NCBI GenBank assembly: GCA_046497485.1
Contig: JAWOFP010000055.1
Location: forward strand, 1 to 26,916
Reading direction: 5' to 3'
Origin: Candidatus Nanohaloarchaea archaeon
Lineage (GTDB): Archaea; Nanohalarchaeota; Nanosalinia; Nanosalinales; Nanosalinaceae
Length of the DNA stretch: 26,916 nt
The position numbers and the translations under genes were made by a program. The notes under the pieces are model-generated. The model was not told the DNA's origin. It worked only from the letters and a program-made list of their open reading frames with translations, and did no database searches. Positions 114 through 26,357 of this stretch are shown one piece after another. Each line of letters starts with the position of its first letter. Position 1 is the first letter of the stretch.

Positions 114-413
114 ATGACAGACAAACTTGGGCAAGAAGAAATAGATGAAAGACTCGAAGGCCTGAAAATCTGGAGTATTCAAGCCGATAAACTTGTTACA
201 CGGATAGAGTTTGAGAACTACCGTGAGGCCTGTTTCTTCGCTAACACTGTATTCTCTCTGGCTGAACGAGAGTTCCATCACCCAGAAGTCAAAGTAGAGT
301 ATGGCGCAGTAGAGATTGACTTATGGAGTCATGATGTAGAAGGCCTGACCGAGAAGGACTTCAAATTAGCAAAGGAAATTGAAGACTCAATAAGCGACAT
401 CGACTGGGAATAA
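114..413 (+). CDS. Pterin-4-alpha-carbinolamine dehydratase (PCD/PhhB family)
   Basis: 99 aa; E-x3-HHP-x5-Y-x9-H-x8-D catalytic motif (EREFHHPEVKVEYGAVEIDLWSHDVEGLTEKD). Confidence 0.93.
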   Translation: MTDKLGQEEIDERLEGLKIWSIQADKLVTRIEFENYREACFFANTVFSLAEREFHHPEVKVEYGAVEIDLWSHDVEGLTEKDFKLAKEIEDSISDIDWE

Positions 414-417
414 ATTT

Positions 418-876
418 ATGAGAGTTCCAGAAAGTGCTGACAGAGACTTTGTAGCAGGAGCATTCATAATCGAAAACAATAAAGTCCTATTCTTGAGACA
501 TAAGAAGTACGGTTTGTGGCTTCAGCCCGGCGGCCATGTAGAGGAAAGGGAGACTCCTGATGAAGCTGCTATACGGGAAACTATAGAGGAAGTAGGCCTA
601 AAAATAGAGGTTTTGGATGATTTCAGGCCTGATACTTCTTTCGAGAATAAGTCTGAGGATCTGCCTCAGCCATTCAATATTAACTTACATCAGATTGAGG
701 AAGGTCACTGGCATCTTGACTTCCAGTACTTGGCTAGAACTGTAGATGAGATAGATGAAAAGGAGTATTCTGATGAAGATATGAAATGGTTCTCAAAAGA
801 CGAGCTAGAAAGCGAAGACTTAAATATGCCAGAGAATGCTAGAATAACTGCGTTGAAAGCATTAGAAGAGCTCTAG
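418..876 (+). CDS. Nudix hydrolase
   Basis: Canonical Nudix box GHVEERETPDEAAIRETIEEVGL, preceded by WLQPGG; downstream HWHLDFQY. Confidence 0.92.
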   Translation: MRVPESADRDFVAGAFIIENNKVLFLRHKKYGLWLQPGGHVEERETPDEAAIRETIEEVGLKIEVLDDFRPDTSFENKSEDLPQPFNINLHQIEEGHWHLDFQYLARTVDEIDEKEYSDEDMKWFSKDELESEDLNMPENARITALKALEEL

Positions 877-1329
877 CTAGAATTCTAGAGGCCTTACAGG
901 CACATCTTGAGAGCCTTTTTCTTTGAAATCATCTAGTATTGTATCGAGATCAAATCTGGTTTCAAACTCTCTAATCTCTTCTATTGAGACGTATTTTGCA
1001 TCGAGTATTTCTTCCTCGGCATCTGGCTCAATCTTACCTCCCGTCTTTTCTGCTTCAAAAAGAATCAATGTATTTTTAGCATCAGTCCTATCAGCATCTC
1101 TAGTATAGATCCCAATCAATCCTTTGAGTTGAACTTCCAGGCCTGTTTCTTCTCTTGTCTCTCTTATAGCGGCTTGTTCAATTGTTTCATCGTGATCCTC
1201 ATCTTCTTTGGCGTAACCACCGGAAGGGAGATTCCATTTACCTTTTACATGTTCTTTTCCTTCCTGAATCAGCAGTATTTCTCCTGATTCGTTCTCTATC
1301 AGTGTGCCTGCTCCAAGATGGACAGTCAT
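877..1329 (-). CDS. Nudix hydrolase (MutT/ADP-ribose pyrophosphatase-like)
   Basis: GKWNLPSGG followed by a Nudix box ...ETIEQAAIRETREETGL with a 4-residue insertion. Confidence 0.88.
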   Translation of the reverse strand: MTVHLGAGTLIENESGEILLIQEGKEHVKGKWNLPSGGYAKEDEDHDETIEQAAIRETREETGLEVQLKGLIGIYTRDADRTDAKNTLILFEAEKTGGKIEPDAEEEILDAKYVSIEEIREFETRFDLDTILDDFKEKGSQDVPVRPLEF

Positions 1330-1374
1330 AGAATAATGTTTAGAAAAATGAAGGGAAAAATGTTTTGGAGGTCT

Positions 1375-1938
1375 TTAAAGCGCTCCGATTTCTTTCAAGT
1401 TCTCTTCTAGTTTCTCGATTCCTTCTTCTACATCTTCATAGGTTCTGCCTCCTGTACAGACAAGATTTCCTGATGAGAACAGTAGGAATACGACTTTAGG
1501 TTCGTCAAGTCTATAAACAAGTCCTGGGAACTGTTCTGGTTCGTACTCTGTTCCTACAAGCTCGAATGCAATTCTGTTCAGGTTCAATGTTCCGTCTAAC
1601 TGGCTTGAAGCTACGATGTTCTGTACTGTTACTTCTGGTTTAGTTGCGATTTCTACGTCTGCTTCTCTGAGCTCGTCGATGATCTTGTGGGTTGCTTCTT
1701 TTGCCTGTTCCGGAGACTTGGTTCCTGTACAGACCACTTTTCCTGAGCCAAATAGAAGTGCTGCGGCTTTTGGGTCTTCTAGCCTGTAGACTAGGCCTGG
1801 GAACTGTTCTGGTTCGTACTCTGTGTTTTCGAGGTAGATTGCGATTCGGTCTAGAGGAAGTCTTTGGTCGAATGTTGCGGATGCGACCACGTTCTGAATT
1901 TCGATTTCTTCGTTGTCAATTTCGTCATTATTTGCCAT
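1375..1938 (-). CDS. tbp: TATA-box binding protein
   Basis: Two TBP repeats (IQNVVAS...YEPEQFPGLVYRL...LFGSGKVVCTG and VQNIVAS...YEPEQFPGLVYRL...LFSSGNLVCTG); SD-like AGGTGA at 1953-1948. Confidence 0.98.
   Translation of the reverse strand: MANNDEIDNEEIEIQNVVASATFDQRLPLDRIAIYLENTEYEPEQFPGLVYRLEDPKAAALLFGSGKVVCTGTKSPEQAKEATHKIIDELREADVEIATKPEVTVQNIVASSQLDGTLNLNRIAFELVGTEYEPEQFPGLVYRLDEPKVVFLLFSSGNLVCTGGRTYEDVEEGIEKLEENLKEIGAL
1523..1824. repeat. Perfect 29-bp direct repeat between the two TBP halves
   Basis: cctgggaactgttctggttcgtactctgt at 1523-1551 and 1796-1824. Confidence 0.9.
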
Positions 1939-2075
1939 AGTATTTTTTCACCTTAAGGTTGGAAAGGGTTAAAGAGTAGATGTTTAAATGGTTTATATAC
2001 TCTTTAAGTACCATTTATAAATAAACTCTTTTAAAAGGGAGCGCCTTGTTAAACCTGCAGAACTAATAACAATTG

Positions 2076-2381
2076 ATGAATAAATTTAGGCAGCAGCTAA
2101 TCCTTCTTTTCGCACTTATGGGGTTCCTATCAGCTGTAACAGTATTCTTTGTGACAGTTACATCATCCGATCCCGGTCAAGAAGCTGTAGATAATTCTCA
2201 GAATAATGAGAGTGTTCTACAAAGTATAGAAGTAACTGAACCTGAAGGAGACGGGTTAATAGCACAGTCAATTAAAGGCCTAATAGCTTTGAATGAAGAC
2301 TTCAATACAGGCCTCAGCGCTATATCTGGAGAAGTCAATGAAACTGAGGAAAATAAAAGTTTAGATTCTGATATTGAATAG
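2076..2381 (+). CDS. Hypothetical protein with N-terminal signal/anchor helix and acidic tail
   Basis: MNKFRQQ, then hydrophobic LILLFALMGFLSAVTVFFVTV, then a D/E/S/N-rich region; fills the gap between tbp and rpl15e. Confidence 0.65.
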   Translation: MNKFRQQLILLFALMGFLSAVTVFFVTVTSSDPGQEAVDNSQNNESVLQSIEVTEPEGDGLIAQSIKGLIALNEDFNTGLSAISGEVNETEENKSLDSDIE

Positions 2382-2402
2382 AAAAGTTAATAGAAAGATA
2401 TG

Positions 2403-2978
2403 TTATTTGTTCTTGCCGTCGTTTGCGTTACCTGAAGGCCTTAATTTCTCTGCGCCTTTTCCTTTGTTTTTCAGGCCTCTGCTCTTGTTTGAAGCAGGCG
2501 TCAAACCATTCTCGGCTCTGTTTCTGTTGTCCGCAATCCAGTTAATATCGTCGTCTGCCTGGATTTCAGGATGTTCTGGATCTACTGTGATGACTTCGAA
2601 CCATTTGTAGTTTCCGTCTTCTGCAAGCCAGTAACTATCTAGAACTTCTAGATTCTCAAACTTGGAGGATACTTTCTGTTCACCGATTACTTGTTTGGAT
2701 TTCTTAGAGCTGTATCGGCTCTGTCCTGCCTTTGAAGGCTTTCGTCCGCCGTCTGCTCTTCTTCTTTTGGTTCCTCCCTTATTTACTCTTACACGGTATA
2801 CTTGGAAGCCTTTCTTTGCCTTGTATCCTTTCTGGCGAGCTTTTGGAAGTCTTGTAGGATTCTCATGTCTCTCAATCACTCCTTCTTTTCTCCATTTCTG
2901 AAGTCTATTCTTCCAGATTTCATCCAGATTATCTTTAGGTTGTTCGTATTGTTCTCTGGCGTATTTGTAATAGCTCAC
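2403..2978 (-). CDS. rpl15e: 50S ribosomal protein L15e
   Basis: RLQKWRKE...PTRLPKARQKGYKAKKG...RVRV...NLEVLDSYWLAEDGNYKWFEVITVDPEHPEI; GTG start. Confidence 0.97.
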   Translation of the reverse strand: MSYYKYAREQYEQPKDNLDEIWKNRLQKWRKEGVIERHENPTRLPKARQKGYKAKKGFQVYRVRVNKGGTKRRRADGGRKPSKAGQSRYSSKKSKQVIGEQKVSSKFENLEVLDSYWLAEDGNYKWFEVITVDPEHPEIQADDDINWIADNRNRAENGLTPASNKSRGLKNKGKGAEKLRPSGNANDGKNK

Positions 2979-3083
2979 CGGTAATCAGCTCTAATTCATT
3001 TAGGCGGTGTAAATATTATAAACCCTATCAGATAGCATGGTTAGTAATATAAGAGTTTTTTGTCATTGGTTAGTTGTGATAAT

Positions 3084-3449
3084 ATGCATCCAGCAATAAA
3101 AGTAGCATTTGGAGCTTTAATGGTAGTATTGGGCGTTTACTCTTCACTGAGTTACACCTCAGAACTGGTAAACTTTGTACAAGCAGTTATCGGACCTCTA
3201 CTAATATTAGTAGGAGCATTCATCATTTGGCTTGAAAGTGATGAATGGAGACTGAACATGGAAGACGATTCAGATAGAGGGTTCGATGTACAGCAAAGCC
3301 TCAAACCTCAGACAGAGGACAACAACGATAAAGAGGCTATCAAAGAGGCAGCACAAGACAGTTCAGACAAGATTGCATGCCCAGACTGTGGAAAGGAATT
3401 CGATACAGAAAGAGGAATGAAAATCCACAGAACCCAGAAACACGCCTAA
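3084..3449 (+). CDS. Membrane protein (two TM helices) with C-terminal C2H2 zinc finger
   Basis: Likely ATG at 3084 (MHPAIK); two hydrophobic segments, an acidic linker, then CPDCGKEFDTERGMKIHRTQKH (C-x2-C-x12-H-x4-H). Confidence 0.8.
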   Translation: MHPAIKVAFGALMVVLGVYSSLSYTSELVNFVQAVIGPLLILVGAFIIWLESDEWRLNMEDDSDRGFDVQQSLKPQTEDNNDKEAIKEAAQDSSDKIACPDCGKEFDTERGMKIHRTQKHA

Positions 3450-5110
3450 CTCTGTGAACTATACAGAGATTCCACTCTTTTTTTATTATCTGCTTCTTCT
3501 TTATCATCTCTAAATCTTTTCAGACGCGGAAAACGCAACGCATAACCAGAATTATAATTAGGCGACTCCTGGATTTCTTCATACTCAACTTCTACCAATA
3601 CTTCAGGCCTCAACTCTACATCTCTGCCATCTTCAGACTGGATAAGCGGCTTCAATCTCTCAGTAACTTCTTCTAACTGCTTATCTGTAAGGCCTGAACT
3701 CATTCTACCGACCATCTCATACTCTTCAGTTTCCTCGTTCCAGCAGCCCAGCTTTAATCTCCCAAGCCAACCACTCTTTCTGCCCTCGCTCCACTGAGCT
3801 CCGATAATCGCAAGGTCTAGAGTCTCCATAACCGGCTTTAATTTAACCATGTAACCGACTCTAGAACCCGGTTTATACTCTGCATCTAATGACTTCATCA
3901 TAACGCCTTCATGGTTCTGGCCCAGCGAGGCCTGCTGCATCTCATTGACTTCCTCAACTTCAGAAGTCACAGTCCTATCCACCAAACTAACATCCTCGGA
4001 CTCACTCACAATATCTTCTAATATACTCCATCTCTCCTCGTAAGGCCTCTCCATAACAGACTCTTCATGGTATAAGACATCGAAAGGCCTTAAATCGACA
4101 GGGATTTCTTTCTCCATCTTCTCAATATCATACTTCCTCTTAATCCTCTTTGAGAGCCTCTGGAAAGGAATAACCTCTCCATCTTTCATCCCCACAATCT
4201 CAGAGTCAATTATACAGTTATCAGACTCAATGTTTTCTTCCACATATCTCTTAACATCAGGGAACTGAGAAGTGACATTCTCCAATCTCCGTGTAAAGAT
4301 CTTGACTTCTCCTTCTTTAACATGGATCTGGGCTCTCATGCCATCAAATTTATAATCAACTGCGGCAGGCTTCCCAACAGTCTCAAACCCTTCTTCAATA
4401 TTCTGAACTTTTTTAGCTAACATGGAGTTTACAGGCCTGAAAAGCTGTAAATCTATTTTCTCAAGTTCTTCTGTTCCTTTCCTTGAAGCGATTGCCACTT
4501 TTCTAAAGTCATTTGAGTAGTCATAGGCCTCCTGAATTAGTTCAGAGTTCTCTCCGTTTAGGAAGGCCTCATCAAGCGCGTCTCGTACTGTTCCTTCCCC
4601 TATGCCTATTCTCAGGTTTTCCAGCATTATTCTTGCTAGGTAACGAGCTTCTTCAGGCTCGGCGCTTGAAAGTAGATCGGCGAGAAGCTTCTTTTTCTTA
4701 TCCTGGCTGACACTCTGGGAAATCCCTTCCTTCTCCATTTTCGAGACTTTTTGCAATCTCTTCATGACTTTCTCAACCGTTAATTCGTTTGTCATCAGCT
4801 TTTGCTGGGTCTTTCCTTCAATCATTTTTTCTGCGGCATCACCAAGATCGCCGGAGGTCTTCCATACTTCTTCAACTTCTTCCTCTTTTCTGCCTGAGGC
4901 CTTAGAAATTATATCTACGACGGATTTGCTTGAGATCCCTAGATCGAGGTCTTCCCAAGATGGCGATATACGCCCGAGTGAAAGCATGACAACATCTTCC
5001 AGATCGTCCTCGGATTCACTGTATAGTTCAGATAGAATATCTATTTTTTCTAGTGAGGCCTGTGTGTCTTCAACTTCCTCTAAATAATCTACTAGGTTTG
5101 AAAACTTCAT
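3446..5110 (-). CDS. lig: ATP-dependent DNA ligase
   Basis: Motif I YKFDGMRAQIH, motif III IIDSEIV, motif IV EGVMMK, motif VI LRFPRLKRFRDDK. Confidence 0.97.
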   Translation of the reverse strand: MKFSNLVDYLEEVEDTQASLEKIDILSELYSESEDDLEDVVMLSLGRISPSWEDLDLGISSKSVVDIISKASGRKEEEVEEVWKTSGDLGDAAEKMIEGKTQQKLMTNELTVEKVMKRLQKVSKMEKEGISQSVSQDKKKKLLADLLSSAEPEEARYLARIMLENLRIGIGEGTVRDALDEAFLNGENSELIQEAYDYSNDFRKVAIASRKGTEELEKIDLQLFRPVNSMLAKKVQNIEEGFETVGKPAAVDYKFDGMRAQIHVKEGEVKIFTRRLENVTSQFPDVKRYVEENIESDNCIIDSEIVGMKDGEVIPFQRLSKRIKRKYDIEKMEKEIPVDLRPFDVLYHEESVMERPYEERWSILEDIVSESEDVSLVDRTVTSEVEEVNEMQQASLGQNHEGVMMKSLDAEYKPGSRVGYMVKLKPVMETLDLAIIGAQWSEGRKSGWLGRLKLGCWNEETEEYEMVGRMSSGLTDKQLEEVTERLKPLIQSEDGRDVELRPEVLVEVEYEEIQESPNYNSGYALRFPRLKRFRDDKEEADNKKRVESLYSSQS

Positions 5111-5127
5111 ACCTATTTTATAGGCCT

Positions 5128-5140
5128 GAAAGGTTTAAAC
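5128..5140 (+). promoter_or_regulatory. BRE/TATA promoter candidate for the nitroreductase-family gene
   Basis: GAAAGG-TTTAAAC about 26 bp upstream of the ATG at 5165, the spacing of a leaderless transcript. Confidence 0.6.
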
Positions 5141-5164
5141 AGTCCCGACCAATAAACATGTAGT

Positions 5165-5791
5165 ATGGCAGGCCTGGAAGATTTCAATAGTATCAAAGGT
5201 TTTGACACCGCGAAAGATGAAGTTATAGAGAGGAAGAAGATGGGTAGATTACTTGAAGCAGGTCGTCATGCGCCTTCTCCTGGAAATGTTCATACCGTCG
5301 AGTTTGTCGTAGTAGAGGATCATGGAAAGCTTGATCATCTTTCTGAGGTTGTTGGAGATACTAGAGTTCACAAAGCACCGACTTCTGTAGTTGTGCTTTG
5401 CGATCCGAACAGGATGAGTAGAAGGGTCGATAATGAGATGGAGGCCTGTTTTGCAGAGGTTTCTGCTTCGGTTCAAAATATGCGTATTTTGGCAAACAGT
5501 GAAGGCCTGTGCACTAATCTTGTGATGGGTTTTGATAGTACTGCTGTCGCTAATTTGATTGATTGTCCTGATAGCAAGATTCCCTTGGCAGTACTGAGTT
5601 TTGCATATTCCGATAACCCAACAGATTCCAGTGATAGATTTGGTCTCAATGAGATTTGTTTCTATAATGAATATGGAAACCAAATTGGCAGTGTGTTCGA
5701 TGGCTGGGAGTGGGAAGGTATCCATGAGGAGAGAGAAGTTTATACTAAGAAGCTTCGAGGCCTTGTTAAGAAGTTGAAAGACCGGATATGA
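5165..5791 (+). CDS. Nitroreductase-family protein (divergent)
   Basis: LLEAGRHAPSPGNVHTVEFVVV, KAPTSVVVL, SVQNMRILANSEGLCT..GFD. Confidence 0.85.
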   Translation: MAGLEDFNSIKGFDTAKDEVIERKKMGRLLEAGRHAPSPGNVHTVEFVVVEDHGKLDHLSEVVGDTRVHKAPTSVVVLCDPNRMSRRVDNEMEACFAEVSASVQNMRILANSEGLCTNLVMGFDSTAVANLIDCPDSKIPLAVLSFAYSDNPTDSSDRFGLNEICFYNEYGNQIGSVFDGWEWEGIHEEREVYTKKLRGLVKKLKDRI

Positions 5792-5872
5792 AAGGGTTTA
5801 TAAATATTCGACTCGATTATTTACTTGTTAATGATAACGGACTCAGTTGTGAGTTTGACGGGAAAAATCCAA

Positions 5873-5886
5873 GAAAAAGTTTATAA
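5873..5886 (+). promoter_or_regulatory. BRE/TATA promoter candidate for the trmB-family gene
   Basis: GAAAAAG-TTTATAA; a second candidate GAAAGGG-TTTATAAATA lies near 5790-5806; SD-like AGGTG precedes the ATG at 5927. Confidence 0.55.
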
Positions 5887-5926
5887 CTACTCTAAAGGAA
5901 ACATTCTCATAGGTGTATAGAAGAAA

Positions 5927-6763
5927 ATGGTAGCTAGCCAAGAGACTCTTGACAAATTAGAGGACATCGGACTGAACATGTACGAAAGAAAGATTTACTC
6001 AGCTCTTCTCGGAAGAGGTATCTCGACCGCAGGAGAACTAAGCGAAATGACAAACGTTCCAAGAAGCAGAGCTTACGACGTTCTGGAGTCTCTGGCAGAA
6101 AAAGGCTTCGTAGTAATTAAGTCCAACAAGCCAATGGAGTACGTATCAATCCCTCCACAGCAAGCTATCGAAAACATGAAGTCTCAGCACGAAGACAATT
6201 TAGAAGAGAAACTAAACAAGCTAGACTCAATGAAAGAAAGTGAGGCAGTCAATGAACTTGAGAACCTGTACGATCAGGGAGTAGAACTTGTTGATCCTGC
6301 AGAGATGTCAGGAAGCCTCAAAGGCTCAAGACAAGTCCACCAACACATGGGGACAATGTTCAAAGACGCAGAAAGCTCAATCAAAATACTTACAAGCGAG
6401 CAAGGCCTCAATGAACTAAACGAAAAACATGGAGACCTTCTAGAAGAAGCTAGAGAAGACGGAATCAATGTAAAAGTCCTTTCACCAGTCACACAAGATA
6501 ACAGAAAGGCCTTTGAAGAACTATCACAACATGCAGACGTCCGACACATGGACGAAAATGAACTATCAGCTGTACCAGACGGAAGATTTACAATTGTCGA
6601 TAACGATGCAGCCACAATCTCACTAACACATGACGATGTTCATTCTACTCAGGATACTCATCTTTGGAGTAAGTCAGATCATATGGCTGAAGCAATGCTT
6701 GAACCAATGTTCGACAATATCTGGGACCAAGCACCAGAGAAGCCAAAGGGACCTGAAAAATAA
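5927..6763 (+). CDS. TrmB-family transcriptional regulator / chromatin protein (TrmBL2-like)
   Basis: wHTH GLNMYERKIYSALL...TAGELSEMTNVPRSRAYDVLESLAEKGFV, coiled coil, C-terminal effector-type domain. Confidence 0.92.
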   Translation: MVASQETLDKLEDIGLNMYERKIYSALLGRGISTAGELSEMTNVPRSRAYDVLESLAEKGFVVIKSNKPMEYVSIPPQQAIENMKSQHEDNLEEKLNKLDSMKESEAVNELENLYDQGVELVDPAEMSGSLKGSRQVHQHMGTMFKDAESSIKILTSEQGLNELNEKHGDLLEEAREDGINVKVLSPVTQDNRKAFEELSQHADVRHMDENELSAVPDGRFTIVDNDAATISLTHDDVHSTQDTHLWSKSDHMAEAMLEPMFDNIWDQAPEKPKGPEK

Positions 6764-8224: not shown

Positions 8225-9817
8225 ATGTCAGAACTGAAAACCCTATCAAGAAAAATAATTGAACAGATAGAAAACGGAGAACTAGAATCTAAAGAGGAGA
8301 TCGAGCAGGAGAAGAAGAACCTCTGTAGAGAGTTAAGTTTCCCAGGAATGCCAAAAAACAGCGATATACTAGATTTTGCTGAAGAAGACGAGAAAAAGGC
8401 GCAGAAGCTTTTAACCACTAAGCCGATGCGAACAATCTCTGGAATTGCTAACATTGCGATCATGGCGAGGCCTGCACCCTGTGGCGGAGGATGCATTTAC
8501 TGTCCTAAAGGAAAGGACGCGCCACAGAGTTACACAGGTAAGGAACCAGCCACAAGGAGAGCGATCAGGAACGGCTACGACCCATATGACCAGGTCCACG
8601 ACAGACTTGGCCAGTACGAAAAGAATGGTCACTCAATTGATAAATCCAAATTAATTGTAATGGGGGGAACATTTCCTTTCCAGGACCCAGATTATCAGAG
8701 GGAATTCTTAACAGAGGCCTTCAACGGATTCAACACATATCCTGAGGACTCAGATAACGAGAAAGTCGATACTCTGGAAGAAGCCAAAAAGATTAACGAG
8801 ACTGCAGAGGTCAGGAACGTGGGAGTTACTTTCGAGACCAGGCCTGATATCGCGGAGACCAAGCATATTGATAGAATCCTGGAGATGGGAGGAACCCGTA
8901 CAGAAATGGGCGTTCAGACAGTATTCGACGAGACTCATGAGCGAACAAATAGAGGCCATGGGATGGAGCCTGTGATTAAAGCCACTAAACGATTGAAAAA
9001 CGCAGGCTTCAAAGTATGTTACCATCTGATGCTAGGCCTTCCAGGGGAAGGATATGAAGAAGATATCGAAAAGTTCAAAGAAGTCTTCAGCAACGAAGAT
9101 TATCAGCCTGACGAGATTAAGATCTATCCTTGTGAAGTTATTCAGGGAACTGAGCTTTACCGCCAGTATGAGGAAGGAGAATTCGATCCAATTGATGATG
9201 AAGAAGCGAAAAAGCGGTTGAAGAAGGCTCAGAAAGATATAATTCCTCCACATGTGAGAGTGAAGAGAGTTATGAGAGATATTCCTTCGACTGAAGTCGA
9301 TGCCGGCCCACAACTAACAAATATGAGGCAAATGGCCTTACAGGAACTTAGAAAAGAAGGAAAGAGGTGTAGATGTATAAGATGTAGGGAAGTAGGGCAT
9401 GTGAAGAGAACTCACGATCTTGAACCTCACAAAGAGAATATCGAATTAATTGAGAGAGATTACGAGGCCTCAGGAGGGCAAGAATACTTTGAAAGCTTTG
9501 AGGACACTGAAAATGACATAATTCTGGGATTCACACGGTTAAGAGCTCCGGATGAGTCTCACAGACCTGAAATTGATGAAGATGCTTTACTCGTCCGACA
9601 ACTGAAGGTGCTTGGTTCTGCTACTGATATCGGTGCGGAGGGTTCAGACACTCAGCACAAGGGATACGGCACGAAGTTAATGGAAAATGCCGAGGAAAAA
9701 GCTAAGGAGCTTGGAAAAGAGAAAGTCGTTGTAATCTCTGCAGTGGGAACTAGGGAGTATTACCGGAAGCTTGGGTATGAGAAGGAAGGTCCTTACATGG
9801 TCAAGAATCTAGATTAA
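8225..9817 (+). CDS. elp3: Elp3 tRNA uridine(34) acetyltransferase (radical SAM + KAT)
   Basis: KPMRTISG, CGGGCIYCP, PQSYTGKEPA, ETRPD, CRCIRCREV, QHKGYG, ISAVGTREYYRKLGY. Confidence 0.97.
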   Translation: MSELKTLSRKIIEQIENGELESKEEIEQEKKNLCRELSFPGMPKNSDILDFAEEDEKKAQKLLTTKPMRTISGIANIAIMARPAPCGGGCIYCPKGKDAPQSYTGKEPATRRAIRNGYDPYDQVHDRLGQYEKNGHSIDKSKLIVMGGTFPFQDPDYQREFLTEAFNGFNTYPEDSDNEKVDTLEEAKKINETAEVRNVGVTFETRPDIAETKHIDRILEMGGTRTEMGVQTVFDETHERTNRGHGMEPVIKATKRLKNAGFKVCYHLMLGLPGEGYEEDIEKFKEVFSNEDYQPDEIKIYPCEVIQGTELYRQYEEGEFDPIDDEEAKKRLKKAQKDIIPPHVRVKRVMRDIPSTEVDAGPQLTNMRQMALQELRKEGKRCRCIRCREVGHVKRTHDLEPHKENIELIERDYEASGGQEYFESFEDTENDIILGFTRLRAPDESHRPEIDEDALLVRQLKVLGSATDIGAEGSDTQHKGYGTKLMENAEEKAKELGKEKVVVISAVGTREYYRKLGYEKEGPYMVKNLD

Positions 9818-10197
9818 TATTCTATTATTCTCTTCTCTAATTCTATATCGAGGCCTTGACAGGCGTTTTTTACTAGCTTGAAGTAAGGCTTTCTTTCATT
9901 CTCCAGCTTTCTAGTATGATAAATTACTTTGTCTACGTTATGAGATTCTAGAAAATTTTTGACTCCTGTAATAAGCTGAGGAATATTTCTTTCCCGTAAA
10001 AGCTCATCGTAGAACGGGATCTCCTCTTCAGGCCATATTAGACCGTATTTTCCTGAAAGTATCGCAAAATCCTCATTTCTTTTCTCTGCTAAGGCCTTTA
10101 TTCTATCGATTCTTTCCGAGTCGTATCTTTCTATAGCTGGGAGGTCTTTCCTTGTTCTGTCTTTTTCTTTTGTGCAGTATGTGATATGGAGCGTCAT
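9814..10197 (-). CDS. DUF6884/YaaA-like small protein
   Basis: CTKEK...LPAIERYDS...ILSGKYGLI...IPFYD pattern typical of this family. Confidence 0.7.
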   Translation of the reverse strand: MTLHITYCTKEKDRTRKDLPAIERYDSERIDRIKALAEKRNEDFAILSGKYGLIWPEEEIPFYDELLRERNIPQLITGVKNFLESHNVDKVIYHTRKLENERKPYFKLVKNACQGLDIELEKRIIEY

Positions 10198-13736: not shown

Positions 13737-13937
13737 TTAATGTTCCACCGCCATATCGATATCTTCCTTTTTTACAGTGTTTCTATCTGCGTAATCCGCA
13801 AACTTTGAAGCATCTGAAGCTATTTCTTCTCCAAGCTCCTCTATTGCGTCTCTTAGTTCTTCCACTGCGCCGCTGGAAACTCTCTCTGCTCCAGCACCTC
13901 TAATTATTCTTTCAACTGCTGCTTTAGGTAGACTCAT
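13737..13937 (-). CDS. Archaeal histone (HMf family, single fold)
   Basis: 66 aa, collinear with HMfB: LPKAAVERII..AGAERVS...R.TVK.EDI. Confidence 0.95.
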   Translation of the reverse strand: MSLPKAAVERIIRGAGAERVSSGAVEELRDAIEELGEEIASDASKFADYADRNTVKKEDIDMAVEH

Positions 13938-17025: not shown

Positions 17026-17030
17026 ATATG

Positions 17031-18113: not shown

Positions 18114-18207
18114 ACCGTGAAGTTCTTGTTTTATACTTATTAGTTGTAATAGAGACATGAGGTTACAACAACTTTTTTAAACGAGTCTTGAGCGAGCGTC
18201 GTGGTTG

Positions 18208-18216
18208 TTTTTATAA
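18208..18216 (+). promoter_or_regulatory. TATA candidate for the ATP synthase operon
   Basis: TTTTTATAA about 27 bp upstream of the ATG at 18243. Confidence 0.5.
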
Positions 18217-18242
18217 GCTTTTCAAGTGGATTCTTTTGTACG

Positions 18243-18560
18243 ATGGCTGATGTAGTAAAACAAGTGCAGAGTGCGGAAACCGATGCCAAAAATATAGTTG
18301 AAGAGGCAGAGGAAACTAAACGAGAGGAGATCCGCAAAGCAGAGGAAAAAGCAGAGAACATTATTGAACAGGCTGAAGAAACTGCAGAGGAGAAGAAAGA
18401 GTCAGAGCTCAAGAACTATAGAGAAGAGCTTGAAGAGGAGAAAGAAGAACTTCTTGAAGATGCAGAAGACCAGGCCTCGGATTTAAGAGATACTGCTTCA
18501 GATAACAGGGAAAAAGCCGTCAAGTTTCTGGAAGACAGATTCGAAGAAGAGTTTCTCTAG
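18243..18560 (+). CDS. atpH: A/V-type ATP synthase subunit H (G-like peripheral stalk)
   Basis: Charged coiled coil AETDAKNIVEEAEETKREEIRKAEEKAENII; first gene of the operon; likely ATG at 18243. Confidence 0.85.
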   Translation: MADVVKQVQSAETDAKNIVEEAEETKREEIRKAEEKAENIIEQAEETAEEKKESELKNYREELEEEKEELLEDAEDQASDLRDTASDNREKAVKFLEDRFEEEFL

Positions 18561-18567
18561 GTGATTA

Positions 18568-20343
18568 ATTATCAGGCCTGAAGAGATGACCAAAGTTTCA
18601 GTAACAGCGCCGAAGACACAGCTAGAGAATGTAGTGGAATCACTACACAGTCTAGGCCTGATGGACTTCGATGACTATGAAGGAGAACTAGAGACCGGAA
18701 GCCCAATGGAGGGCTCAGATGAGATCTCTCAATTATTAGTTGATATCCGTTCAATTCTATCGAAACTAGATGTTAATGAGACGGAACAAGCCACAGTTGA
18801 AGATGTAAGAGAGAAAGTTCCCGAAGTTCACAGCAGTTTAAAGGAATCAGAAGCAGAGATCAGCTCTCTGAAAAGCAGAAAAGAACAGTTAAAAGATAAG
18901 AAAAAGAGTTTTGAAAAGATACTTAGCGCGGATGTAAATCTCAGGGAATTAGAGGATACAGACACATTAAATTACAGAATACTGGATTTCAAGGAAGAAG
19001 AGTTCTCCCAGATTTATGGATCCAGGAATTATGAGGTTTTCCACGGTAAAACTGCTTCAGTATTGGCCTACATGAACAAGGAAGAAGATCATGTCAATGA
19101 GTCTCTTGAAGGCTTAGTCAAGAAAGAGTTCGATATTCCTGTAGAGGATGGAACGCCTGAACAGATTGTAAATCAGATTAATTCTGAGATTTCAGATATT
19201 GAGGCCTCAATTGAGTCCGAAAAAGAAAAAATAAATCGGCTTGAGTCAACTTGGGGACCAAAGTTCAACCATGTTGAACAGTTCCTAACGGAGAAGATTG
19301 AGAAGGCTGAAGCACCTCTGAAGTTCGGAACTACTGAAAAGAGCTTCATAGTAGAAGGATGGGTTCCATCAGAGGAAGAAGCCCAGCTCAAGAAAAGTAT
19401 TACAGCCTCTACTGACAATAAAGTACATATTGAAACTATGGAGGGTGAAGACCCTCCGGTCAAACACGATAATAACAAGATAGTAACTCCTTTCGAATCA
19501 CTTACAGATCTAATGGCGAGGCCTAAGTACGGCGAAGTCGATCCAAGCTTCTTGATTCTACTAACATTCCCATTGTTCTTTGGAATGATGATTGGGGACG
19601 CAGGATACGGAATTACTTCAGGCCTAGTATTTTTGGCAGGGATCAAGTTCTTCCCTCAGGCCTCCAAGCTGTTCAAGGCCCTACTATGGACCTCAGCAGC
19701 CACAATGGTCTTCGGAATAATTTACGGAGAGTTCTTTGGATTCCATGTGCTTGATACTCCTTTCTACAGAGGAGATCTATGGACGGAGATATTTTACCTA
19801 TCAATAGCGATAGGGGTAGCGCATGTCAACTTAGGCCTATTGATTGGAGCATACAATGAATATGTACATCATGGAATACTGGAGGCATTGTTCGCCAAAG
19901 GATCATGGATCCTACTGCAGATCGCAGGACTTGCAGGATACCTGACAGCTTCAAGCTACGGAACTACTCCGGGCCTTGCAATAGGCCTCGGAATCGGTAT
20001 TCCAACCTTAATGATGCTTTACAAGGGTGAAGGAATCGAAGGAATCGTAGAAATACCAAGCCTTGTATCAAATATCCTGTCTTACCTACGATTGTTCGGG
20101 GTATGTATGGCGGCTTACACGCTGGCTGGTACAGTCAATCAGATGGCTAATCCAATGCTTGCATCAGGCTCTCTGATGGGTATTGCTGGCGGAGTGCTGA
20201 TTATGATTATCGGTCACACAGTACTGACATTTGTTAAAATTATGGAAGGCTTCCTTCAAGGTATACGACTCCATTATGTAGAACAGTTCGGATGGTTCTA
20301 CGAAGGAGGAGGAAGAAAATACAGTCCGTTCGGAGGAGAATAG
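18568..20343 (+). CDS. atpI: A/V-type ATP synthase subunit I (a)
   Basis: MTKVSV N-terminus, PKYGEVDPS, FFGMMIGDAGYG, LSYLRL, RLHYVEQFGWFYEGGG. First ATG is 18586; the conserved-looking extension IIRPEE starts at ATT 18568. Confidence 0.95.
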   Translation: MIRPEEMTKVSVTAPKTQLENVVESLHSLGLMDFDDYEGELETGSPMEGSDEISQLLVDIRSILSKLDVNETEQATVEDVREKVPEVHSSLKESEAEISSLKSRKEQLKDKKKSFEKILSADVNLRELEDTDTLNYRILDFKEEEFSQIYGSRNYEVFHGKTASVLAYMNKEEDHVNESLEGLVKKEFDIPVEDGTPEQIVNQINSEISDIEASIESEKEKINRLESTWGPKFNHVEQFLTEKIEKAEAPLKFGTTEKSFIVEGWVPSEEEAQLKKSITASTDNKVHIETMEGEDPPVKHDNNKIVTPFESLTDLMARPKYGEVDPSFLILLTFPLFFGMMIGDAGYGITSGLVFLAGIKFFPQASKLFKALLWTSAATMVFGIIYGEFFGFHVLDTPFYRGDLWTEIFYLSIAIGVAHVNLGLLIGAYNEYVHHGILEALFAKGSWILLQIAGLAGYLTASSYGTTPGLAIGLGIGIPTLMMLYKGEGIEGIVEIPSLVSNILSYLRLFGVCMAAYTLAGTVNQMANPMLASGSLMGIAGGVLIMIIGHTVLTFVKIMEGFLQGIRLHYVEQFGWFYEGGGRKYSPFGGE

Positions 20344-20392
20344 ACTGTGTTTTCAATGCTAAATCTATATTTCGAGGTGAAAACCTAAACCA

Positions 20393-20611
20393 ATGGCACT
20401 AGAATTAGGAGCAGCACTAGGAGCAGCAATCGCAATCGCAGTCTCAGCCTTAGCAACAGCTTGGGCTCAGGCAAAGATTGGAACCGCAGGAATCGGAGCA
20501 CTAGCCGAAGACGACAGTCTTTTCGGTAATGTACTGATCCTTGTGGCTATTCCGGAAACAATTGTAATTTTCGGACTGGTTGTCGCACTAGTGATCGCAG
20601 GATTCATATAA
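20393..20611 (+). CDS. atpK: A/V-type ATP synthase subunit K (c, single hairpin)
   Basis: 72 aa, two TM helices, AQAKIG...IPETIVIFG; SD GAGGTGA at 20374-20380. Confidence 0.96.
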   Translation: MALELGAALGAAIAIAVSALATAWAQAKIGTAGIGALAEDDSLFGNVLILVAIPETIVIFGLVVALVIAGFI

Positions 20612-20620
20612 AAAACCAAA

Positions 20621-20641
20621 GAGGCCCTTTCAAGGGGCCTC
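20621..20641. promoter_or_regulatory. GC-rich stem-loop between atpK and atpE
   Basis: GAGGCCCTT-TCA-AGGGGCCTC, a 9-bp stem with one G-U pair. Confidence 0.7.
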
Positions 20642-20689
20642 AATTACTTTAATTTATTCAAACAACAAGAAAAGAGGAAAAAAGATATT

Positions 20690-21226
20690 ATGGGACTTCA
20701 ACAGGTAACAGACGAAATTTTGGACGAAGCAGAAGAAAAGGCAGAAGAAATAAAATCAGAGATGGAATCTGAAAGAGATGAAATAATTTCTGAGGCAGAA
20801 GATAAAGCTGATGAAATAGTCAGTGAAGCAGAAGAGGAAATCGAAGACGATAAACAGGCCTTGAAGCAGAAAGAAATGTCTAAGGCTAAGATGGAGTCCA
20901 AGCAAAAGATTCAGGAAGCCAAACAGGGCGAAATAACAAAAGTATTCGAAGAATTCAGAGAAGGCCTCGAGGACCTTAAGAAGTCTGAGAGAGAAGCACT
21001 AGTTGAGAATGGTAAAGAGTCCGCTAACTTTGAGGTAGGCCTTATCAAAGGTTCTGAAGAGTTTGAAGATGTAGTAGATGAAGATTTCGAGGAAATCGAT
21101 CAGAAAGGAATCATTCTTGAATCTGATGACGGCAGCAAATCAATCAACTTGACTTTCGACCGTATTCACCAAGAGTTCAGAAAGGATTACAGAAGTGAGG
21201 TGGCTCAGCGATTATTCGATCAATGA
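20690..21226 (+). CDS. atpE: A/V-type ATP synthase subunit E
   Basis: MGLQQVTDEILDEAEEKAEEI coiled coil, KGIILESDDGSKSINLTFD; operon position. Confidence 0.92.
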   Translation: MGLQQVTDEILDEAEEKAEEIKSEMESERDEIISEAEDKADEIVSEAEEEIEDDKQALKQKEMSKAKMESKQKIQEAKQGEITKVFEEFREGLEDLKKSEREALVENGKESANFEVGLIKGSEEFEDVVDEDFEEIDQKGIILESDDGSKSINLTFDRIHQEFRKDYRSEVAQRLFDQ

Positions 21227-22203
21227 TCCCTAAAGATTATCCTTACATGTATGCCAGGGTTTCAGCCAAGAAAAAGAAGCTTTACACCGAGAGAGACTAC
21301 GATAACTTTCTGAAGATGCAGGTAAACGATATCTCCAGAAAAATGGAGGAAGGAAGCTACAAGACAGAGATTAATGAACTTGGAAGCGAGTACGACGGCG
21401 CAGAGCTTATTGAGAAGGCCTTGAACCTTAATCTTGCTAATACTTACGAAAACTTGCTGAAGGTTGCTTCAGATGATGCTAAACCTATAATTAGAGTATA
21501 TTTGAGAAGATTCGATATAATTAATATCAAGAGAATTATTAGGTGGAAAGAAACCGATCAGTCTGAAAAAATTGAACATATTCTATACCCTATCGGGACA
21601 CTAGGCCTTGGATTTGAGGAAATTAGGGAAAACAGTGTTGAAGAAATACTTGAAGATCTAAACTTTGAAAACTCCAGAGTAGATTATCAAGCTGAGATAG
21701 AAGACTGTGAAACAGTTGGAGAAATCGAGACCTGTCTTGACAGACTGTATTCTGAAGAATTAAGAGATCTAGCAGATTCTTCTGGAAGTAAAGAGTTCCA
21801 GAAATTTGTGAAAGATGAACAATTCAACCAAGATCTGAAGATTGCATTGAGATTGAAGAGGTACAATATTGAGAAAGAAGAAATTCTAGAACGACTGTTC
21901 AATCATAAAGATGAGCTAGAAGAGCTTCTCGAATCAGAAAACTTTGAAGATGCCCTCAAATTAGCTGGAGAAATGACAGAGCTGGAAGCAGAGAATATGG
22001 AAGAATTTGAGAAAGAACTGGATAGAGACAGGCTTCAGAGAGCATTAAATGCTTTACATAGAGAGCCTCTAGGCCTTTCGTCTATGATTGGCTATATTGT
22101 GGCAAAGGAGATCGAAATCGAAAATATGAGAATGATCGCTAGAGCCAAAGAAACAGGTATTCAAAACAACGAGACGATCAAGAAGAACTTGGTGACAATG
22201 TAA
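21223..22203 (+). CDS. atpC: A/V-type ATP synthase subunit C
   Basis: YPYMYARVSAKKKKL, RFDIINIKRIIR, PLGLSSMIGYIVAKEIEIENMRMIARAK. Confidence 0.94.
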   Translation: MIPKDYPYMYARVSAKKKKLYTERDYDNFLKMQVNDISRKMEEGSYKTEINELGSEYDGAELIEKALNLNLANTYENLLKVASDDAKPIIRVYLRRFDIINIKRIIRWKETDQSEKIEHILYPIGTLGLGFEEIRENSVEEILEDLNFENSRVDYQAEIEDCETVGEIETCLDRLYSEELRDLADSSGSKEFQKFVKDEQFNQDLKIALRLKRYNIEKEEILERLFNHKDELEELLESENFEDALKLAGEMTELEAENMEEFEKELDRDRLQRALNALHREPLGLSSMIGYIVAKEIEIENMRMIARAKETGIQNNETIKKNLVTM

Positions 22204-22563
22204 AAAATGGAACAGGAAACAAAGAAAGAGATTGCAGTAATAGGTTCAGAGGAGTTTACTCTGGGGTTCAAGCTAGCAGGTATCAAAAAGAGCTTTGTAC
22301 CGGATGACTTCGATGAAAAAATCAGCGATCTTCTAGAAAGAGACGATCTAGGTATTATTGTAGCTGAAGAAGACATGATTTCGGAGGCCTCAAGAAAGAC
22401 AAGAAGCATGATCGATGGGTCAGTTGATCCGATTGTTATCGGTCTTTCAGAGGAAGCTGAAAGCGAAAGACTTCAGGAAAAAATCAAGAGAGCGATTGGC
22501 GCAGACATAACACAAAACTAATACTAATGGTGAAATTACAAAAAATGGAACACGAAACACAGA
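22190..22563 (+). repeat. 36-bp imperfect direct repeat of the atpF initiation region
   Basis: 22190-22225 tggtgacaatgtaaaaaatggaacaggaaacaaaga vs 22528-22563 tggtgaaattacaaaaaatggaacacgaaacacaga, 30/36 identical without gaps. Confidence 0.75.
22207..22521 (+). CDS. atpF: A/V-type ATP synthase subunit F
   Basis: [38 protein letters not shown]. Confidence 0.96.
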
Positions 22564-22601
22564 GTTTTTCGACAACTGGAGATCGCGGAGGCGATTTCTG
22601 A
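22545..22601 (+). CDS. Putative 18-aa leader/coupling peptide [18 protein letters not shown]
   Basis: Has its own GGTGA SD at 22529-22533; stop TGA overlaps the atpA ATG (TGATG). Confidence 0.45.
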
Positions 22602-24331
22602 TGTCAAAAGGAGAAATCTATAAAGTAGCAGGACCTGTTGTAATAGCGACAGGAATGCAGCCACAGATGTACGACGTAGTATCTGTGGGAGAAGAAGGCC
22701 TGATGGGCGAGGTCATCCAGATCGAAGGAGACCAAGCATACATCCAGGTCTACGAAGACACAACAGGAGTAAAACCAGGAGAACCAGTAGAGAACACTGA
22801 ACAGCCTCTATCCGTAGAACTCGGACCAGGCCTACTTGGAAGCATTTACGACGGACTGCAGAGGCCTCTAGTAGAATTACAGAAAAAGAGTGGAGACTTC
22901 ATTGAAAGAGGAGAAGACGCTCCAGGAATCGACATGGACGAAGAATATGACTTTTCTCCAAGAGTCGAGGAAGGAGACGAAGTTGAACCTGGCGATGTAG
23001 TCGGAACCGTTGAAGTAGAGTACGGAAAGCACAAAGTAATGGTGCCGCCGGACTTTGAAGGAGGAGAAGTAGAAAAAGTAAACTCCGGGGAACACACTGT
23101 AAAACAGACGGTAGTAGAGCTTGACTCAGATGAGGAAATCTCTATGAGACAGGAATGGCCTATCAGAGATTCAAGGCCTGCTGATGACGACCTGAAGCCT
23201 GAAGTACCTTTGATCACAGGTCAGAGAGTACTTGACGGATTATTCCCTCTAGCAAAAGGAGGAACAGCAGCAGTACCTGGAGGATTCGGAACAGGAAAAA
23301 CAGTTACACAGCAATCTCTTGCAAAGTTTTCCGACGCAGACATCATCGTATACATTGGATGCGGAGAACGTGGGAACGAGATGACAGAAGTACTGGAAGA
23401 GTTCCCAGAACTTGAAGACCCACAGACAGGAGATAAAATCATTAACAGAACAGTATTAATCGCAAACACATCAAACATGCCAGTAGCAGCAAGAGAGGCC
23501 TCAATCTACACCGGAGTAACTATTGCAGAGTACTTCCGTGATATGGGACTTGATGTTGCACTGATGGCAGACTCTACTTCTCGTTGGGCAGAAGCTATGC
23601 GTGAAGTATCGGCAAGACTGGAAGAGATGCCTGGTGAGAGAGGATATCCGGCATATCTTTCCTCAAGACTTGCGGAGTTCTATGAGAGAGCAGGTAGAGT
23701 AGATCCGCTTGCGGATGTCGATCCAGGTTCCGTCTCGATTGTTGGAGCAGTTTCACCTCCAGGAGGAGACTTCTCAGAACCAGTTACCCAGAACACTTTG
23801 AGAGTTGTAAAGAACTTCTGGGCTCTCGACTCAGACTTAGCAGAGAAAAGACACTTCCCATCTATTAACTGGGACGACTCCTACTCAGGATACAAAGATA
23901 AGCTAGCAGACCACTTCGAGGAAGAAGTGGACGAAGACTGGCAGACTAACATTCAGAGAATGAGAGACATTCTGCAGAAAGATGGAGAGCTTCAGGAAAC
24001 AGTTCAGTTAGTAGGTAAGGACGCATTACCTGACCGTGAGAGATTGACTCTTGAAATTGGTACAATGGTTAAGCAGTTCTACCTGCAGCAGAACGCTTTC
24101 CACCCAGTAGATGAGTACTCATCTCCTGAAAAAACCTATCATATACTTCAGACAATCCTTGACTGGGCTGATGAGGCCTACGATGCTCTAGAAGATGGAG
24201 CGATGGTCGAGGATATTATCTCACTGAGCAGCAAGAACCATATCAGTGAGTTAGCGACAAGTGAGGACTTCCTTGATGTCAAGGAGGAAATCAAGAACCA
24301 GATGAACGAAGAGTTCGAGGAGGTAAGATAA
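22601..24331 (+). CDS. atpA: A/V-type ATP synthase subunit A (catalytic)
   Basis: P-loop [42 protein letters not shown]; no intein. Confidence 0.98.
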
Positions 24332-24332
24332 G

Positions 24333-25718
24333 ATGGTACAGCAAGAATACAAGACAATCAGCGAAGTTAAAGGCCCTCTAGTTTTCGTCGAGAAGACTGA
24401 GGATATCGCTTACGGAGACATCGTAGAAATCGAAACCCCTGACGGAAATGTCAAACAGGGAGAAGTCCTTGAAACCTCAAAAGATGTGGTAATCATCCAA
24501 GTCTACGAGGAAACACAGGGAATCGGACAGGACGCAAAAGTCCGTTTCATGAACGAAAATGTCAAGATGCCTGTAACAGAAGACCTACTAGGGAGAGTCC
24601 TAGACGGTAAAGGAGAGCCTATCGACGATGGCCCAGAAGTAATCCCAGATGAGGAAAGAGATATTGTCGGAGAGGCAATCAACCCTTCCTCAAGAGAGCT
24701 GCCAGAGGACTTCATTCAGACAGGAGTCTCAAGTATCGATGTCATGAACACACTAGTTAGAGGACAGAAACTACCAATCTTCTCAGGCTCAGGCCTACCT
24801 CACAATGAGCTAGCGATGCAGATCGCTCGACAGGCCGACATCAAAGGAGATAAGGAGTTCGCAGTAGTCTTCGCAGGAATGGGAATTACAGAAGAAGAAT
24901 CCCAAGAATTCATCGAAGAGTTTAGAAACACGGGCGCACTTGAAAGATCAGTAGTCTTCCTGAACAAGGCCTCAGATCCGGCGCCGGAGAGAATCATTAC
25001 TCCAAGAATGGCTTTGACAACTGCAGAATACCTTGCGTACGAGAAGGAGATGGAAGTCCTAGTAATTATGACTGACATGACCAACTACTGTAACGCGCTT
25101 CGTGAAGTATCCGCAGCTCGTGAAGAAGTACCGGGTAGAAGAGGATACCCAGGATACATGTACACAGATCTAGCTAACCTTTACGAGAGAGCCGGAATTA
25201 TTGAAGGCCGTGAAGGATCAGTCACCCAGCTCCCAATCCTGACAATGGTTGGAGACGACATGACACATCCGATCCCTGACCTTACAGGATACATTACAGA
25301 GGGTCAGATCGTAGTAGACAGAGATCTTGACAATCAAGATGTCTCACCGCCAATTGATGTGCTTCCAAGCCTTTCCAGACTGATGGACAACGGTATTGGA
25401 GAAGGTTACACCCGTGGAGATCACGGAGATGTCAAAGACCAGCTTTATGCGCTCTACGCAGAAGGACAGGATCTCAGAGATTTAGTCGCGATTGTCGGAG
25501 AGGACGCATTATCTGACAGAGATGAGAAAGTCTTAGAGTTCACCAATATGTATGAGGAACACTTCGTAGATCAAGGATTTGATGAAAATAGAGACATAGA
25601 AGAATCGCTTGAACTTGCATGGGATTTACTTTCAATTGTTCCTATGGATGAACTTACAAGAATTGACAGAGAACTCAGGGAAGAAAAACTTGAAGGCCGA
25701 GAGCCAGAGTTCAACTAG
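24333..25718 (+). CDS. atpB: A/V-type ATP synthase subunit B
   Basis: [49 protein letters not shown]. Confidence 0.98.
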
Positions 25719-25727
25719 AGGATTAAA

Positions 25728-26357
25728 ATGGCACAGGATGTAAAACCTACAAGAAGTGAGGAGCTCAGGCTCAAGGAAAGCATTGACCTGGCCAGCAATG
25801 GCCACTCAATTCTTGAGCAGAAGAGAGACGGATTAATCCATGAGTTTATGGAAGTAGTTGGTGACGCTCAAGATGTAAATGAGGAGCTTGCAGAGCTTTA
25901 CAGTGAAGCCAGACTTAAGTTGCTTCTGACAGAGGTCTACGATGGAGAAGATGCTCTAAGAGCAAATGCACTGACAACTAAAAATGGTTCAGAGGTCAAA
26001 CTTGAATCCCAAAACATTATGGGAGTGAAAGTCCCTGAGATCGAATCTATTGAAGTCAGTCGAGGCCTTATGGAGCGAGAATATGGTCTTACAGACTCAT
26101 CTTCTAGAATCGATGCGACCGCTGACAAATATGAGGATCTACTTGAGAAAGTAGTAGATGCGGCCGAGACACAGACCAAGATCATGAGACTTCTCAATGA
26201 AATAGAGAAGACTAAGAGAAGGGTCAATGCCTTGGAGCACAAGATCATTCCGGAGATGGAAGCAGGCCTGAACAAGGTCTCCCAGCTCTTAGAGGAGCGG
26301 GAAAGAGAAGAGACTTTCCGGATGAAGAAGATTAAATCTATGGCAAGTCAAGATTAA
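25728..26357 (+). CDS. atpD: A/V-type ATP synthase subunit D
   Basis: KPTRSEELRLK, GHSILEQKRDGL, NIMGVKVP, EIEKTKRRVNALEHKIIP. Confidence 0.97.
   Translation: MAQDVKPTRSEELRLKESIDLASNGHSILEQKRDGLIHEFMEVVGDAQDVNEELAELYSEARLKLLLTEVYDGEDALRANALTTKNGSEVKLESQNIMGVKVPEIESIEVSRGLMEREYGLTDSSSRIDATADKYEDLLEKVVDAAETQTKIMRLLNEIEKTKRRVNALEHKIIPEMEAGLNKVSQLLEEREREETFRMKKIKSMASQD

Follow-up and report, generated by a model that had tools for sequence, protein, structure and literature searches.

AGGCCT, an archaeal variant of the highly iterated palindrome, in rich and poor sister genomes of the Nanohaloarchaea

What causes a six-letter palindrome to fill a chromosome? We take up this question with a stretch of 26,916 bp (41.8% GC, here called the window), positions 1 to 26,916 of contig JAWOFP010000055.1 from a Candidatus Nanohaloarchaea archaeon, in which the word AGGCCT recurs in nearly every gene. 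An initial annotation, made from the letters alone, ascribed these copies to a genome-wide force that acts on DNA independently of peptides and is comparable to HIP1, the highly iterated palindrome (HIP) of cyanobacteria; shuffled genes, spacers and the other contigs of the genome all support this. The genome that holds the window, labelled G000, is an assembly of 967,558 bp in 66 contigs (97% complete). Its size of about 1 Mb, its acidic proteins and archaeal histones, and its match to hypersaline-lake runs fit a nanohaloarchaeal origin, and the organism is likely a salt-loving symbiont. We find that AGGCCT is an archaeal variant of the highly iterated palindrome phenomenon, and that its relatives provide natural on/off controls. 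The coordinates of the features discussed are collected in Table 1.

The over-representation of AGGCCT is real and strong. The word outnumbers every other hexamer in the window, where the estimate of about 95 copies turns out to be exact; the copies lie on average about 280 bp apart (gaps range from 31 to 1,132 bp), and 95 of the 123 GGCC tetramers are flanked by A and T, the three quarters originally noted. Genome-wide there are 3,249 copies, or one per 298 bp, at 1.8-5.8 per kb on each of the 66 contigs, and the excess recurs in 11 other genomes, so that it is not a property of this contig. A palindrome excess above 15-fold marks the HIP class; in G000 the excess is 21x by base composition (order 0), 14.8x by an order-1 and 6.4x by an order-2 Markov model. 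Of the other palindromic hexamers none rises above 1.9x in the order-1 comparison. No octamer dominates around AGGCCT in the word counts of G000. An order-4 Markov model leaves AGGCCT at 1.09x, because codon usage itself is shifted by the word. As for the assembly, contigs from four runs of four studies (hypersaline-lake runs) cover 30 of 30 bins in a 20-kb part of the window at a likeness of at least 85%, a threshold at which the covering contigs come partly from relatives.

Could the word be an artefact or by-product of codon bias, peptide motifs, cloning or assembly, as the order-4 value might suggest? We called genes with our own open reading frame (ORF) caller (89% coding), so borders between genes and spacers are approximate; the caller truncates the A-ATPase I gene, and two sites counted outside genes lie inside it. 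In the window, 87 sites fall inside 35 called genes, 28 of which hold at least one, with 51 on the plus and 36 on the minus strand and all three frames in use (14 Arg-Pro, 31 xAG-GCC-T, 42 A-GGC-CT). This upholds the earlier observation that copies occupy both strands, every frame and most genes, and that no single peptide motif explains them. Synonymous-codon shuffles of the same genes (n=1,000) give 10.7 ± 3.0 sites and at most 21. Over all G000 genes, 2,821 sites compare with 397 ± 16 in 20 synonymous shuffles, about 7-fold, so the excess survives the codon-preserving randomisation that the annotation had proposed alongside Markov models. In spacers the enrichment is 29-38-fold, and divergent, tandem and convergent spacers are alike. 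An excess of 7-8x over protein-preserving shuffles and about 30x in spacers, 12 independent assemblies, and the spacing and flank structure described below refute an artefact, to which we give practically no credence.

The protein sequence permits AGGCCT through synonymous choice at 4,217 places in G000, which we call opportunities, and the word is present at 2,819 of them, about two thirds. Realisation is 71-74% across all core-gene classes and 55% in genes that lack an orthologue in G022 or G024; site density is 0.9-1.4 per kb in two islands and a provirus-like region. The provirus-like region itself (G000:C59:5253-14000, with integrase and primase-helicase) has 1.4 sites per kb, and its primase-helicase gene realises none of five opportunities. 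Opportunities are themselves unevenly distributed between genomes: over 498 orthologues there are 14.2 per 1,000 codons in G000 and 8.6 in the AGGCCT-poor G024, and compatible tripeptides are 65% more numerous in G000. The force therefore reaches into amino-acid sequence and not only synonymous codons. In a small sample we see no remnant peptide excess in poor genomes, which have 8.5 per 1,000 codons within the clade and 9.0 beyond it, against 11.4 for rich genomes.

How is the trait distributed? Counting in other Nanohaloarchaeota, as had been suggested, reveals a patchy pattern. Defining rich genomes as those with at least 2 sites per kb (by rounded genome sizes), 12 of 70 genomes of the phylum are rich, all in one family and in 4 of its 21 genera, and the remaining genomes have less than 1 per kb. 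One genus holds two rich members, G005 and G060, and four poor ones, G059, G061, G062 and G063. In a tree of AtpA (one gene, 26 rows, three partial loci left out), the rich G010 is sister to the poor G024 (99/95), the rich G003 to the intermediate G004 (100/98), and the rich G005 groups with the poor G007 and G017 (99/98); such a topology may reflect either a single gain with losses or repeated gains. G004 realises about 30% of its opportunities, and where G000 has a site it carries transition neighbours of AGGCCT in 13 of 19 cases, the pattern that site decay would be expected to leave. Comparing orthologous genes for site conservation, another of the early proposals, gives a divided answer: of 829 places jointly possible in G000 and G022, both carry AGGCCT at 415, and this is only slightly above the 380 expected from independence. 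Likewise 30-60% of G000 sites are common to rich relatives, slightly above independence given opportunity, in pairs near synonymous saturation. AGGCCT sites thus turn over between genomes and are not fixed in position. Divergence at fourfold sites is flat, that is, not lowered, near AGGCCT, again in genome pairs near saturation. In a scan of viral loci (15 of 64 parts, 121 loci) the highest AGGCCT densities fall mostly on short loci of repeat-like character, and an acidic proteome is absent from all of the top 25.

Now we consider which molecule might read the word. The initial annotation listed a methyltransferase, a chromosome-organising protein and a self-recognition or uptake tag; we retain the last two as readings, and the first loses its place as leading candidate. 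Family searches covered seven of the 12 rich genomes. G000 has one 5-methylcytosine (m5C) methyltransferase (G000:C53), adjoining a McrB-like AAA gene; PF00145 finds no match in the remaining six rich genomes of the search, of which three are single-contig. PF01555 is above cut-off in one of seven and PF02086 in none of five; a weak PF01555 match was set aside as a DNA methyltransferase and read as a Trm11-like tRNA enzyme. PF02384 yields type I or IIG-like genes in some rich genomes and no DNA enzyme common to them. In a motif inventory of G000 and G022 the common enzymes are only methyltransferases of RNA, protein or small-molecule type, and the one other S-adenosylmethionine (SAM) methyltransferase that these two have in common was rejected as the factor, being found in 17 of 50 genomes, poor ones included. 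The proposed search for an orphan m5C enzyme and Vsr- or EndoMS-like repair genes thus gives the m5C gene of G000, and EndoMS/NucS, which occurs in 46 of 50 family genomes and does not track the trait; a regular-expression look at G000, G022 and G024 found no MutS, MutL or Vsr motifs.

Where a GGCC methyltransferase does occur, the sign is opposite. A full-length M.HaeIII homologue and an NgoPII-family nuclease gene, enzymes whose specificity we take to be GGCC, are adjacent in G020 and G024, which are among the poorest of the family in AGGCCT (73 and 97 sites), and G024 avoids GGCC (0.33x). The pair was not found in the seven rich genomes searched; a type II restriction target combines a cognate pair with an avoided site, and in G000 the site is enriched. 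An unrecognised methyltransferase or other modifier, or one supplied by the haloarchaeal host or a virus, could nevertheless mark (A)GGCC(T) and exert a classical HIP1-type drive. AGGCCT contains GC like all HIPs discussed by Elhai, the octamer CAGGCCTG of Synechococcus sp. PCC 6312 has been linked to GGCC methylation (PMC13756078), methyltransferases have been proposed to pass between a nanohaloarchaeon and its host (PMC11001535), and G000 is incomplete, with one third of G010 covered in full. Set against the four families without a common enzyme, the inventory, and the poverty of both genomes with the GGCC pair, such a modifier seems quite improbable to us; the main text of two nanohaloarchaeal methylome papers does not mention GGCC (PMC10266531, PMC11001535), nor does the main text of an archaeal restriction-modification survey report AGGCCT (PMC10609329).

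The word appears to be read as a whole. In a conditional codon model the log-odds for AGGCCT are +3.5 in G000, +4.2 in G010 and +2.6 in G022, with a further +1.4 for GGCC in the latter, and single-mismatch words reach at most +0.9 in G000, the best being AGGCCC/GGGCCT. At one-step synonymous choices the six positions are similarly favoured (log-odds 2.6-3.9 in G000, 2.9-4.2 in G010). In G022 the outer A and T are weaker (1.9-2.3) and the motif is relaxed over the whole chromosome (AGGCCT 12.2x, AGGCCA/C/G each 3.2-3.6x, GGCC 2.8x), so specificity drifts; the half-sites of G022, taken in 50-kb windows, give no sign of a two-replichore pattern. Outside the hexamer the preferences are graded. After amino-acid control, position -1 favours purines (odds ratios 1.3-2.0) and disfavours T (0.3-0.7) in three genomes. 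Further out the favoured base is T, at -2 to -4 in G000 (1.5-1.9) and at -3 in G010 (2.1); in G000 spacers T stands at -3 in 46% against 31%. As a separate observation, ACGT is strongly avoided in G000 (log-odds -1.35) and G024 (-1.79) and hardly in G022 and G010 (-0.2).

Sites also repel each other at short range, and the sequence around them is patterned. Permuting realised labels among opportunities within genes, we find that AGGCCT pairs in G000 occur at 0.11 of expectation below 10 bp, recover to 0.5-0.7 for spacings of 15-40 bp and come close to 1 from 80-100 bp onward. Less than 60 bp apart there are 224 pairs where 320 are expected; the trend is the same in G022 and G010. Around sites, synonymous A/T content oscillates with a 10-bp period, peaking at flank positions 1-4, 11-15 and 21-23, that is, about 5, 15 and 25 bp from the site centre, and fades by about 30 bp; sites outside called genes show it too. 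Its amplitude exceeds that around generic W-SSSS-W words (W, A or T; S, G or C) by 1.1 ± 0.26 points with three genomes pooled.

What could produce these features together? Equal base weights, graded flanks, sub-additivity and phasing lead us to place first, and tentatively, a weak selection that would maintain scattered sites for a sequence-specific protein to bind on histone-wrapped DNA. Equal weights, graded flanks and lineage-specific drift argue for a protein that reads the whole duplex word, and sub-additivity at 60-100 bp together with the A/T phasing would suit DNA that is bent, or wrapped in the manner of archaeal histone tetramers, whose protected length is about 60 bp and whose preferred sequence alternates A/T with G/C (PMC10151503). 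The mechanism we infer beyond the sequence statistics is as follows. A putative protein would bind intact AGGCCT on histone-wrapped DNA, perhaps as a dimer with a soft footprint of about 14 bp, and a segment of about 60 bp around the site would be bent or wrapped. Weak selection would favour one anchor per chromosome stretch, and a second site within the 60-bp segment would add little. Once the reader is lost or retuned, sites would decay, as they may be doing in G004, and a GGCC restriction system would reverse the sign, as it may in G020 and G024. In its boldest form this becomes a methylation-independent chromatin anchor, with AGGCCT read at the centre of a 60-bp histone-wrapped unit, chromatin phased every 300 bp, synonymous and amino-acid sequence rewritten, and the system repeatedly switched on, retuned or lost between sister species; so specific a scheme we regard as unlikely.

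Several results weigh against selection for such sites. Neighbour exclusion is a soft ramp and not a step, and no clear period of 10 bp or longer appears in site-to-site distances up to 1 kb. Divergent spacers, which carry promoters, and convergent ones are equally rich. In G022 T is favoured weakly at -2 to -4 (odds ratios 1.05-1.27). The same A/T phase surrounds GC-rich 4-mers in general, with roughly half the amplitude, and does so in G024 as well; the excess falls short of significance when G000 is taken by itself (-1.59 ± 0.35 vs -1.01 ± 0.21), and a matched one-step test of low power finds no added effect of phasing on realisation (+0.009 ± 0.030). Histones occur in 70 of 70 genomes, with five matches in G000, and in an alignment no residue separates the histones of the poor G024, which are close to those of rich genomes, from theirs. 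Two tandem short histone-fold genes of divergent type lie at G000:C8:6336-6942, and G010, G022 and G024 have single copies.

The search for the reader points the same way. We compared G000 and G022 with G024, together with the first 360 kb (about one third) of G010, and found 51 G000 genes common to G022 and weak or missing in G024; we followed nine of these across relatives, along with two genes from a G022-based list and NucS, and none of the 12 tracks AGGCCT richness. DnaG occurs in 25 of 41 genomes, many of them poor, a membrane OB-fold protein in 35 of 41, an HD hydrolase in 21 of 50, EndoMS/NucS at the frequency given above, and a 124-residue ribbon-helix-helix (RHH)-like protein in 5 of 50. 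A 146-residue protein was not found in the rich G005 and G010, and a 205-residue protein with a DGNHR motif was not found in the rich G005 but occurs in the poor G061. A 68-residue winged helix protein, a nucleotidyltransferase with an RHH-like start, Ogt and an Orc1/Cdc6 paralogue likewise do not track the trait. The factor may lie outside the compared gene sets, given the incomplete G000 and the one third of G010, or among the other candidates of the list. Alternatively, a universal protein may exist in a variant form that acts as the factor, or its origin may be extracellular. Two of these genes deserve a remark of their own: archaeal DnaG (L207, G000:C52:23216-24313), present in most of the family, was not found in the single-contig G018 and G024, and the 146-residue protein (L100:12708-13145 in G022; G000:C17:11966-12406) lacks a Pfam match, is 66% identical between two genera, and has a start that resembles ADP-ribosyltransferase folds.

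The shape of the repulsion brings in a rival without function. In it, a nicking or repair factor that recognises the site tilts short-patch mismatch repair toward the AGGCCT strand, and a site already within the patch restores unbiased repair, so that sites accumulate to about one patch spacing; this is Elhai's HIP model, scaled down from 1 kb to about 75 bp and stripped of its methylase. The model foresees that neighbouring sites bring saturation (PMC4390886). When the odds of realisation are made to rise with distance as 1-exp(-d/lambda), a rate-type curve, the gain over a log-odds (selection-type) form is 6.5 log-likelihood units for G000 (lambda 74 bp) and 19.6 for G010 (lambda 80 bp), which also counts against selection, and the two forms tie in G022 (lambda 34 bp); both shapes are, however, our own choices, and the data points are not independent. 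The interchangeability of sites between G000 and G022, the even realisation over core-gene classes, the alikeness of spacer orientations and the reach into proteins would also follow, and EndoMS/NucS is nearly universal in the family. Yet NucS does not track the trait, neither a common methyltransferase nor a nickase was found, the regular-expression look at three genomes gave no MutS, MutL or Vsr, and the flat fourfold-site divergence, although from pairs near saturation, shows no lowering. Central mismatches should block recognition, and the six positions are equally favoured. Gene conversion tracts between chromosome copies in Haloferax are kilobases long, too long for the repulsion scale (PMC8223754). 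We rank this ratchet close behind selection for binding sites and consider it possible though doubtful.

A third alternative makes AGGCCT a tag of self DNA that is preferentially taken up, recombined or spared, like neisserial uptake sequences, Chi, or HIP1 in transformation. The low realisation in genes without orthologues and the sparse provirus-like region and islands would agree with it; HIP1 raises transformation in Synechococcus PCC 7002 (bioRxiv 10.1101/2024.09.10.611283) and correlates with uptake genes (PMC13756078). Recent arrival explains the low island density equally well, however, the repulsion scale of tens of bases is far below the length of uptake fragments, the HIP1 effect is largely methylation-dependent, and none of the uptake genes among the candidates tested tracks the trait. 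We hold a self tag to be improbable.

How does AGGCCT relate to known systems? It resembles HIP1 (GCGATCGC) in being a short perfect palindrome in strong excess, in all frames and in spacers, with no tie to promoters (PMC4390886, PMC5861425, PMC13756078), and its excess in non-coding DNA likewise goes beyond codons and peptides. Its density is 3,360 per Mb, against 300-2,700 for HIP1. It differs from HIP1 in its archaeal genes and different word, in its 6-bp length with soft flanks, in switching between sister species, and in short-range repulsion, with no long-range period seen over distances up to 1 kb. Nor do the seven rich genomes of the family searches have a cognate methyltransferase in common, and because this feature fails we do not file AGGCCT with the methylase-linked HIP systems: it behaves like HIP1 and its alternates, minus the methylase. 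Its closest likeness is CAGGCCTG, an alternate HIP with an AGGCCT core and sporadic occurrence (PMC5861425, PMC13756078), an octamer of one bacterium where AGGCCT has no dominant octamer and spans four genera. The initial annotation knew of no archaeal description, and our search of the main text of open-access papers found none for AGGCCT over-representation; the core itself is not wholly undescribed, since it is known from that one cyanobacterium.

DNA uptake sequences of Neisseriaceae and Pasteurellaceae, and Chi, occur in thousands of dispersed copies and are read by proteins without methylation; uptake sequences are longer or non-palindromic and Chi is strand-oriented. AGGCCT is likewise present in thousands of copies and likewise alters codons and proteins, but it is a perfect palindrome without strand orientation and has a spacing effect below 100 bp, and none of the 12 candidate genes tracks it as a dedicated reader would. 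GGCC restriction-modification of the M.HaeIII and NgoPII type shares the GGCC core and goes with avoidance instead. HIP1 has gone unexplained for three decades, confounded with its methylases. Here a comparable archaeal word comes without a common methylase and with rich, decaying and poor sister genomes, and relatives with GGCC restriction avoid it, so selection and molecular drive can be tested against each other directly by comparative genomics. Experimental testing is feasible as well, because nanohaloarchaea can be co-cultured (PMC10266531). The shift in protein sequence that AGGCCT drives bears on the phylogeny and binning of these archaea.

Table 1. Coordinates of the AGGCCT copies and of the genes discussed (window positions unless a locus is named).
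Feature	Position	Strand	Remark
AGGCCT palindrome	158..26269 (first 158-163, last 26264-26269)	.	95 dispersed copies; word count
ATP-dependent DNA ligase gene	3446..5110	-	10 AGGCCT copies; core gene filled with the word
Archaeal histone gene	13737..13937	-	66 amino acids; PF00808
A-type ATP synthase gene cluster	18201-26357	+	complete, ordinary
A-ATPase subunit A gene	22601..24331	+	6 AGGCCT copies; marker for the tree
M.HaeIII-like methyltransferase and NgoPII-family nuclease genes	L003 1456-3355 (G020); L004 1456-3375 (G024)		

The histone gene of the window contains no AGGCCT and has one site on each side (13715, 13992); it serves only as context for the 10-bp phasing. Elsewhere in the window, a DUF6884-like gene (below the Pfam cut-off) at 9814-10197 on the minus strand overlaps the end of an Elp3 gene. 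A gene of 99 amino acids is found near-identically at 114-413 of the window and at G000:C27:304-603, either a duplication or assembly redundancy.

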